Assembly: GCA_020137815.1 (NCBI GenBank)
Contig: CM035361.1
Span: 4,402,001-4,466,000, forward strand
Source: Hormiphora californensis
Lineage: Eukaryota > Animalia > Ctenophora
DNA: 64,000 nt
Reading direction: 5' to 3'
Numbering within the stretch: the first letter of the stretch is position 1; every line of letters begins with the position of its first letter. Below the pieces are notes generated by a model. That model saw only the letters and a program-made list of their open reading frames with translations, was not told where the DNA came from and did no database searches. Shown in pieces: positions 59,001 through 62,000 of this stretch. Both the position numbers and the translations under genes were made by a program.

Positions 59001-62000
59001 AGTCTAAGCTCTGTCTCTGTGTCTGCTTGTGTGTGACGTGTCTGCTTGTCTGTTTATCTGTATGTACATGTCTTTCGCTCACTCCCTCTCTCAAAATTTA
59101 CTCTAAAACAACAAAAGCAATATAATAAATCCCGAATTGTACTCACAACACAACAGGGTTTGACAAAAATGGGGTATAGAATGGGGCCTCGAGTTACTTA
59201 TCGTCCAAACTGAGGTTGGTGTTGGAAATATAGTAGGAGACACTGTATAGACTATAGTCCCTGAAAATGACTATTAGGCGGTTCAAGGTGCCTACCGGCT
59301 ACCGCACAATTTTTCCTGCTATTTTTGCAAATTTGATCCGCCTAATGTGTCCCAACATCTAAAATCAACCCAGCCGCACACACTGAAAGCAACACCTGTT
59401 GGAGAGTTTTTTACTGTGGATTCCGATAGTGATAATGCAAGGCGGCTGTTTAGTACCTACCCGATCATAGATTTGAATAAACATCGTGTTAAGGAGCTGC
59501 TGATTCACGTGAAAAGCTCTATGAACTGTCCAAAGAAGGACCCCTTTTAACATAAATATCCAAGATGAACTGATAGTGTAATTTTAATCAAATGTAATAT
59601 TAGATTTATTATTATGTAAATCGTTTACATTTGTGCTCATTATTCATATTGTGCTCATTCAATATTATATGATTCGATCTCTCACGTGCCTCTCACGTGC
59701 CACTCACGTGTCACTCACGTCCACAGTGGGTAACGACCCTACAAAGTGGGAAAAAAAGTTGTCTTTAAATTTGCTGAAATTTGGATATCGATTGTAAAAA
59801 TAATCAAGGTTTCACGTAAAACAAACCGCATCGAAAAATATTGAGATTTACAGATTTTATGTTAGTTTGAAGTTGAGGCAAATTGTGGGTTTTCATTTTG
59901 GCTGTGAAATTCGCTTAGATCCATGTGCACACTACTGCAATACCTTTCATTCTTTTTCTTTCATTTCTTTTGTATCGTGATGGTTGTTTTGTGTTCTTTT
60001 CAGTGATTAGGGTTCAATATGTCTTACTCTAACTATTTTTTCTCGGTTGCGCGTGTCAAATTTAGGCTATTTTTAGGATATGAATGACCAAAAAAAGTTA
60101 CTTCGCCGCTCGACGCCACCCCTTTCATTGTGATATTCTGACTCTATGGACAATTTGGAACATTGTAGTGTCGCGGGAATTCCCCACTTTTCCCCTGTTT
60201 GAATTTTATAGCCATTTAAAGTGCGAAATTTAAGCGATTTTTTCGCTTTTTCGGCTTTTATGTGTAAAATGCCTGATCTAAAATGGCATATAACTCAAAA
60301 ACGGTTTGATTTAGGCCATATGTTGCTTCATAAGTCCTATATAAACATGCACATTCCGGACAATTTGCATCAAAAATTGGATCTCTAAGTGGTTCCTGAG
60401 CCAAGTTACGTTTTTACTTAATCAAGTTATTAATTAGCTAATTAATTTTCTTCAAATATTTCAAAAAGGTGGCATCTAAGCACTCTGAAAAGTGTCTAAA
60501 TCGCTTTCTAGGCACGGTTTTAGTCTAGGAGAGGTCACTTTGGCCCAAAAATATGATTTCTACGGCATATATTTCATTTTGTAGGGTCACGCAGGAAAAT
60601 TACCCACTGTGACGTCCCTCTCACTCTCACTAGCTTTGGCTCATAGAACCTAATCAGATCACATTTCTATGAGCCATAGTTGTATGCATCTATGGCTCAT
60701 AGAATCTATGAGCCATAGTTGCATGCATCTATGGCTCATAGATTCTATGAGCCATAGTTGCATGAGCCATAGTTGTAGGTCACCCTGAATATCTAAGTTA
60801 TAGTCTCTTATGATTGTTGGTTTGTGCAGGTTTGTGCGGGTTTGTGTGGGACCTGTGTGTACTGCGTCAGTCTGTGGTATTGTGATGACCGTTTTTTCTC
60901 GTTTCTATTTGTGTGCACTGTTCATGTATTTACTTACCTATTTCAAGTCTACAAAGAGGGGCATCCTTGTTCCACTCTCCGTCGGAATTACAGGTCCTTT
61001 CACGGCTACCATCTCGCACGTGCTTCTTCTGACATTCAATGGTCACCGTCTGTCCAGGATCAGTATCGTTCCAACTTCCTTGCACTGATCCGTCGACGGT
61101 AAAACCAGGGCACGCTGATAGATAAAAATGCTTTAAGGAGCAGCTGATCTTTTTTAAACATACAAAATTCTCCTGAAATTGGGGTTTATTATAATCACTC
61201 CTTCATTACCTGCTGGTTTTGCACGGTAGCTGTCAGATGCGGTGTCATATTTAAATTGTATTTTCTCCACTACATCTCCTCTCCACTTTGATACACACCT
61301 ACTGTCACTACTGTCACTGAACTGGTAGTTCAGAACCTCCACCCCGTTGCACTCTATGCTAAGGGTGGTAGCCGTTTTTCGAATTGTCCAAATCTTGTCC
61401 ACTTCCTCGGGTGGTTGTACTGGGAGGGAGGTCCAGTCGGTACAGTATTGGACAATGTATTGGGAAGGTGAGGTGAACTTTACAAACACCGCTCCAATGT
61501 AACTCTCATATGCATCGTATGTAAGCACAGCAATTTTGTCCTCACTCCCAGCAGTAGAGTTGGTTTTTATTTGAAGAGGGGTACTCTCCAGATCAAATGG
61601 GATCTTAACATCACGTACTACTGGACTCCATGTAACTGAAATTTGATGAATCAGCATGACTACCCTAAATCTGATCAGCAATTATTGATCATCTTGCCCA
61701 AAGGAATATTACCTAGAGTGACACATGTCATGATAATGGAAAGTTACCTGATTTTGCTCGGTAGAGAAATATTGTGTATTTCTCGTGTGTGCTTGTGTGC
61801 ACTGTTCATGTATTTACTTACCTAGTTCAAGTCTACAAAGAGGGGCGTCCTTGTTCCACTCTCCGTCGGAATTACAGGTCCTCTCACGGCTACCATCTCG
61901 CACATGCTTCTTCTGACATTCAATGGTCACCGTCTGTCCAAGATCAGTATCGTTCCAACTTCCTTGCACTGATCCGTCGACAGTAAAACCAGGGCACGCT

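Follow-up and report, generated by a model that had tools for sequence, protein, structure and literature searches.

An 890-bp non-coding transposon with ends like those of ctenophore Transib elements and a 10-bp offset between its two termini

The window analysed here, by which we mean the whole 64-kb stretch of DNA, contains what we read with high confidence as an 890-bp non-coding cut-and-paste transposon, with ends that match those of ctenophore subgroup I Transibs; the enzyme that inserted it was likely a Transib transposase whose gene lies elsewhere in a genome that is likely a ctenophore's (Table 1). The putative placement in subgroup I is read from the sequence of the ends. The heptamer CACAGTG starts at 59722 on the plus strand and at 60611 on the minus strand, and reading inward from either end gives CACAGTGGGTAA, with the first 12 bp identical between the ends. 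A second block, GACCCTACAAA, begins 1 bp past the terminal 12-bp block on the left and 11 bp past it on the right, and ACAAA accordingly lies 12 bp behind the heptamer at one end versus 22 bp at the other. The coordinates, CACAGTG ends and 12/22-bp ACAAA positions given in a first-pass annotation of this DNA all proved correct when re-read in the window. The annotation had also called the element non-autonomous, which agrees with our finding that none of its six frames contains a transposase ORF (the longest stop-free stretch is 73 aa) or translates into an evident transposase remnant. Within the 64-kb window the element is present as a single copy.

Table 1. Positions of the element, its parts and its host repeat in the window
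Feature	Position	Strand	Remark
Probable non-autonomous Transib element, 890 bp	59722..60611	-	36% GC; strand inferred from relatives (long-spacer end taken as 5' TIR)
Target-site duplication ACGTC, left copy, 5 bp	59717..59721	+	
Target-site duplication ACGTC, right copy, 5 bp	60612..60616	+	
Short end, terminal 12-bp block	59722..59733	+	Heptamer CACAGTG + GGTAA; putative 3' TIR by homology
Short end, 1-bp spacer	59734		
Short end, second conserved block GACCCTACAAA, 11 bp	59735..59745	+	
Short end, A-tract	59751..59759	+	22 bp behind heptamer
Subterminal motif	59823..59849	-	24/27 identical to PbaTransib_8175
Second subterminal motif	59896..59911	+	14/16 identical to PbaTransib_8175 and MleTransib_2823 (by eye)
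Long end, second conserved block GACCCTACAAA, 11 bp	60578..60588	-	
Long end, 11-bp spacer	60589..60599	-	Source of the 10-bp offset
Long end, terminal 12-bp block	60600..60611	-	Putative 5' TIR by homology
Host repeat, a single truncated arm from a long-TIR element	59394..60784	+	11-bp tandem array holds the Transib element
Two-armed copy of the host element, inside a LINE	20773..22960	.	9-bp duplication; arms 20773-21296 and 22465-22960 serve as empty-site controls

Tao et al. 2022 (PMC9435367) report six ctenophore Transib-like proteins and state that TIRs are asymmetric in all subgroup I Transibs, whose transposases carry CTT1 and an equivalent of the NBD. The protein features of this subgroup, namely transposase clade, alpha11-alpha12 region and CTT1, connect to our non-coding element indirectly, through its DNA homology to PbaTransib_8175. 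The available part of their supplement gives five ctenophore elements, PbaTransib_0868 and PbaTransib_8175 from Pleurobrachia bachei and MleTransib_2823, MleTransib_3931 and MleTransib_6236 from Mnemiopsis leidyi, which, except for the 27-base motif test described below, were compared by eye on the supplement text. Within that text, both ends can be read for three elements (PbaTransib_0868, MleTransib_3931 and MleTransib_2823), and in all three a 12-bp block is separated from a second block of ~15 bp by 11 bp at the 5' end and by 1 bp at the 3' end; the two with one end visible (PbaTransib_8175 and MleTransib_6236) fit the 1-bp spacer form; 5-bp duplications are seen for PbaTransib_0868 and MleTransib_2823. 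The first 12 bases at both ends of PbaTransib_0868 are identical to those of our element, the first 15 bases of the PbaTransib_0868 and PbaTransib_8175 3' ends are the same as at our short end, and both of these Pleurobrachia 3' ends carry A-tracts like the one at the short end (by eye).

Similarity between the short end and these Pleurobrachia 3' ends, as far as the supplement text gives them, extends over ~190 bp, with collinear subterminal motifs. The 27-base motif lies 102-128 bp from the left end here and 94-120 bp from the 3' end in PbaTransib_8175, and the 16-base motif lies 175-190 bp from the end here, 178-193 bp in PbaTransib_8175 and 187-202 bp in MleTransib_2823 (by eye). In the window the PbaTransib_8175 27-base motif has a single match, with three mismatches, compared with none in 100 shuffles, a control that ignores the fact that the stretch had been chosen by eye beforehand. 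Because the short end and the subterminal motifs align with the relatives' 3' ends, we infer that the left end is the 3' TIR and that the element lies on the minus strand. Judged by its second block, which differs from those of all five published ctenophore elements, the element is a separate family when set against these five. In the same supplement, the MleTransib_2823 record contains the 5' TIR twice, around an assembly gap (by eye); the second copy, which is not the marked prediction, has behind it 5 bp that repeat the bases preceding the 3' TIR (by eye), and is therefore likely the true end.

The first-pass annotation had assigned the element to a Transib/RAG-like family, and of these two the ends and subterminal motifs point to Transib, leaving the RAG-like branch with RAG2L as the less likely one because the matching relatives are filed as Transib. 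We consider it very unlikely that the element is a non-autonomous derivative of a RAGL transposon, with RAG1L and RAG2L, rather than of a RAG2-less Transib. The available text of PMC10462144 shows that RAGL elements likewise produce target-site duplications (TSDs) of 5 bp and gives a 10-bp spacer asymmetry for PflRAGL-A, and AanRAGL has spacers of 4/13 (PMC9435367), but ctenophores are listed under Transib in Tao 2022 (PMC9435367), the ends and subterminal motifs here match ctenophore elements filed there as Transib, and PflRAGL-A has an adenine-rich TR2 behind its heptamer (PMC10462144) where GGTAA stands here. The ends of our element share only these five bases next to the heptamer, rather than a RAGL-type adenine-rich TR2 of 9-10 bp.

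Unequal, 12/23-like ends are less unusual than the earlier annotation implied, since such Transib ends were published for insects in 2005 and for ctenophores in 2022. In the available text of Kapitonov and Jurka 2005 (PMC1131882), 5-bp TSDs are a hallmark of Transib and five insect Transib families have ends resembling RSS12 and RSS23; a 2021 hypothesis paper, as far as its available text goes, builds on these families (PMC8355894), and the available part of PMC8527503 held nothing on Transib. Our literature search, which covered papers, found no report of non-autonomous ctenophore Transibs and no biochemical test of a ctenophore Transib. The family of the 890-bp element may already be catalogued in Repbase or Dfam. 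In Transib family names, N is used for non-autonomous. Three of the five insect families, TransibN1-N3_AG, are named as N families in the available text of PMC1131882. A metagenome scan with the two-block pattern returned nine loci, several with identical flanks, which we rejected as copies and attribute to chance: they gave no BLASTN match to the window (E 1e-3) and no opposite end with a matching duplication. Viral and prokaryote collections yielded no occurrence of the short-end pattern in either (0 and 0).

Judged by these relatives, the 10-bp offset between the ends is a family-wide trait rather than a private indel, as the 1/11 spacer is shared by all three two-ended ctenophore elements. 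The first-pass annotation had itself named such an indel among the findings that would overturn its reading, and the comparison with relatives went the other way. That the ends were originally symmetric, with the 10-bp difference arising as an indel in this one copy, has in its favour only that a single copy is known from the 64-kb window, but the 1 versus 11 spacer occurs at the same position in three of three relatives and two further ctenophore short ends in the available supplement also have the 1-bp spacer, making this explanation highly improbable, more so even than a RAGL origin.

The annotation had further proposed that ACAAA corresponds to the RSS nonamer. The left site, with its 12-bp spacer, matches the nonamer at five of nine positions, with G instead of A at position 6, and the right site, with its 22-bp spacer, at six of nine, with A at both positions 5 and 6, the two positions that Kapitonov and Jurka describe as essential in the available text (PMC1131882). 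At a spacer of 22 both ends score 6/9, the left one by way of its A-tract, which by eye matches the Transib consensus at seven of nine positions, and the long end is likewise A-rich there, in keeping with the A-rich block that Transib elements have ~23 bp behind the heptamer. Heptamer-nonamer sites with at least 6/9 matches number five in the window compared with 11.8 +/- 2.8 in 15 simulations, and none of the five published ctenophore Transib short ends in the available supplement has ACAAA at the equivalent position (by eye, PMC9435367). The nonamer likeness of ACAAA is not above chance; what stands firm is that the second block is offset by 10 bp. With the left site at 5/9 and ACAAA absent from that position in five of five relatives, the nonamer interpretation is not supported, leaving from the proposed 12/23-type geometry an offset of approximately one helical turn that is found across the family.

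The insertion itself is recorded in the flanking DNA. Among duplication lengths of 0-11 bp, the flanks are exactly duplicated at 5 bp only, and removing the element together with 5 bp restores 53 of 58 ungapped matches to an empty arm (22760-22830), compared with 28-42 of 58 for other lengths. Two empty host copies, the arms of the two-armed copy in Table 1, lack the Transib element and confirm that it was inserted. As the target sits in an 11-bp tandem array, the register of the empty site is ambiguous by whole 11-bp units; the exact duplication fixes the length at 5. The exact ACGTC duplication and the restored empty site, each obtained at this length only, bear out the 5-bp TSD of the earlier annotation. 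For the preference of Transib elements for GC-rich targets, this one site gives a G+C content of 3/5.

We also scanned the 64-kb window for inverted pairs that begin with CAC, match over at least 7 bp and lie 100-10000 bp apart. Of the 892 found, two have a 5-bp duplication, and only the 59722-60611 pair has in addition a terminal match of 12 bp and a second block of 11 bp. In 100 order-3 Markov windows there were 70,734 pairs, of which 78 had the duplication, 104 had a match of at least 12 bp and none had both. The second CAC..GTG pair with a 5-bp duplication, at 29991-35256 with an 8-bp match, is at the level expected by chance (~0.8 per simulated window) and was rejected. A chance coincidence of short motifs, for which nothing speaks except that the blocks are short, has a negligible probability given that none of the 100 simulated windows produced both terminal match and duplication, that the empty site already refutes it and that the subterminal motif is homologous to published Transib elements, as far as their supplement is available.

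The surroundings of the element are rich in other repeats. The two-armed host copy (~2.2 kb) has very long inverted arms with 11-bp and 39-bp tandem arrays and G termini, and we take it and the truncated arm around the Transib element to be foldback/Mutator-like. It splits a LINE ORF2 into an endonuclease part (19785-20777) and a reverse transcriptase part (22942-25023), the latter 61% identical to a Pleurobrachia protein; in a Pfam search of eight window ORFs, the LINE endonuclease and reverse transcriptase domains alone scored above the cut-off. Nested inverted-repeat elements occupy 1465-2381, with outer arms at 1465-1624 and 2217-2381, and an internal arm has 42 of 51 bases in common with 60310-60360 inside the Transib element, a similarity that may come from sequence capture or from a subterminal motif common to both. 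Long inverted-repeat (foldback/MITE-like) elements abound in the window, with more at 25743-27222, 40908-43258, 47223-49961, 50664-51631 and 52966-54259.

A tandem cluster of exon pairs, each with a ~145-aa domain exon and a ~57-aa exon, occupies 46200-63586 on the minus strand with a period of ~890 bp. Breaks or intervening repeats affect several units, and the gene starts at 58065-59175 and 62464-63586 are 91% identical. The ~145-aa domain has locally variable stretches and belongs to no Pfam family, and its recognition in the ESM Atlas was below threshold. In a search restricted to longer proteins, the repeated exon next to the element matched 26 of 200 candidates, 25 of them from Pleurobrachia bachei at 44-72% identity (5 named so and 20 recognised by the style of their proteome identifiers) and one from Bolinopsis microptera at 43%. 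Together with the LINE match, this makes it very likely that the host is a ctenophore, and probably one other than P. bachei. The exon homologues come from ctenophores only, agreeing with the annotation's guess at an early-branching animal; they are labelled putative secretory peptides and carry PF00084, which we take to be Sushi. Pleurobrachia relatives hold the array domains in series in one protein, for example P0121 of 1152 aa. Elsewhere in the window, three paralogous single-pass membrane proteins (21-705 and 4417-5061 on the minus strand, 13407-13914 on the plus strand) have a Cys cluster after the helix and proline-rich, PPPY-like tails; Pfam gave no match for the one of the three that was searched.

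Like the annotation before us, we find nothing that links the element to rearrangement of this array, because none of the seven large exons examined has a heptamer, even with one mismatch, within 60 bp on either side, and the element lies inside another transposon. The idea that its ends have become domesticated recombination signals and shuffle the variable exons around them draws on its position among tandem, locally variable pairs of a ~145-aa domain and a Sushi-type exon, but its probability is practically nil in light of those heptamer counts, the lack of enrichment of RSS-like sites in the window, the serial arrangement of the domains within one protein in Pleurobrachia, and ends that enclose only non-coding DNA with their duplication intact.

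For a Transib element of this kind, we propose that a transposase of the RAG1-core-like DDE kind, supplied in trans, would have excised it and inserted it at its present site. As in HzTransib, ProtoRAG and RAG, a transposase dimer would bind both ends, nick beside CAC to leave hairpins on the flanks, and link both ends to the target at positions staggered by 5 bp; nick and hairpin cleavage and the 5-bp TSD are known from Transib, ProtoRAG and RAG biochemistry (available text of PMC10462144 and PMC1131882). Recognition of the heptamer and the five bases behind it would fall to the catalytic core together with the CX2CX3GHX4C tail (CTT1), while an NBD-like domain would recognise the second block. 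With the 10-bp offset, the second block would stay on one face of the helix at two distances, and the short end would therefore be expected to pair best with the long end, on the model of the 12/23 rule. The reaction would require no RAG2.

According to the available text of PMC8289069, ProtoRAG favours unlike ends and requires spacers of fixed length, yet its second block contributes little to cleavage in vitro, which leaves a strict pairing rule uncertain; we regard a strict short/long rule as conceivable, while leaning somewhat against it. The 1 versus 11 bp spacer is fixed across ctenophore families with differing second blocks, a pattern suggesting that selection acts on the distance and not on the sequence. 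On this basis we offer a tentative proposal, one in which our confidence is limited: subgroup I Transib transposases of comb jellies may enforce a one-turn pairing rule without RAG2, such that the 1/11 spacer, kept across Mnemiopsis, Pleurobrachia and the host here while the second block diverges, would be the 12/23 rule in its ancestral form, still operating, and the ACAAA-containing block might make this family the easiest natural substrate for tests of cross-recognition by vertebrate RAG. Should the cognate enzyme prefer short/long pairs without RAG2, this would assign the 12/23 rule, in functional terms, to Transibs that lack RAG2, an ancestry that Tao 2022 (PMC9435367) and Martin 2023 (PMC10462144), in their available text, already argue from sequence.

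The element described here adds one non-autonomous family to the published ctenophore group. With the ctenophore subgroup I Transibs available in the supplement it shares CACAGTGGG termini, a 12-bp block followed by a 1/11 spacer and a second block, and a 5-bp TSD, and unlike them it has no transposase gene, is 890 bp long and carries a different second block. The insect elements Transib5, Transib2_AG and TransibN1-N3_AG (PMC1131882, available text) resemble it in their 5-bp TSDs and unequal 12/23-like ends, although the RSS12-like end is the 5' end in the insect families and the long end takes that position in the ctenophore group. PflRAGL-A of Ptychodera flava, as given in the available text of Martin et al. 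2023 (PMC10462144), has an RSS-like heptamer, a 10-bp asymmetry and a 5-bp TSD as well, but encodes RAG1L and RAG2L and has an A-rich TR2 and an AT-rich, nonamer-like block. Finally, vertebrate 12/23 RSSs have in common with our element the exact heptamer and a difference of about one helical turn between ends, with an offset of 11 compared with 10 here. Unlike in the vertebrate signals, the second block here is not a nonamer (matches of 5/9 and 6/9), both ends have the same five bases following the heptamer, and the ends bound a mobile unit rather than gene segments.
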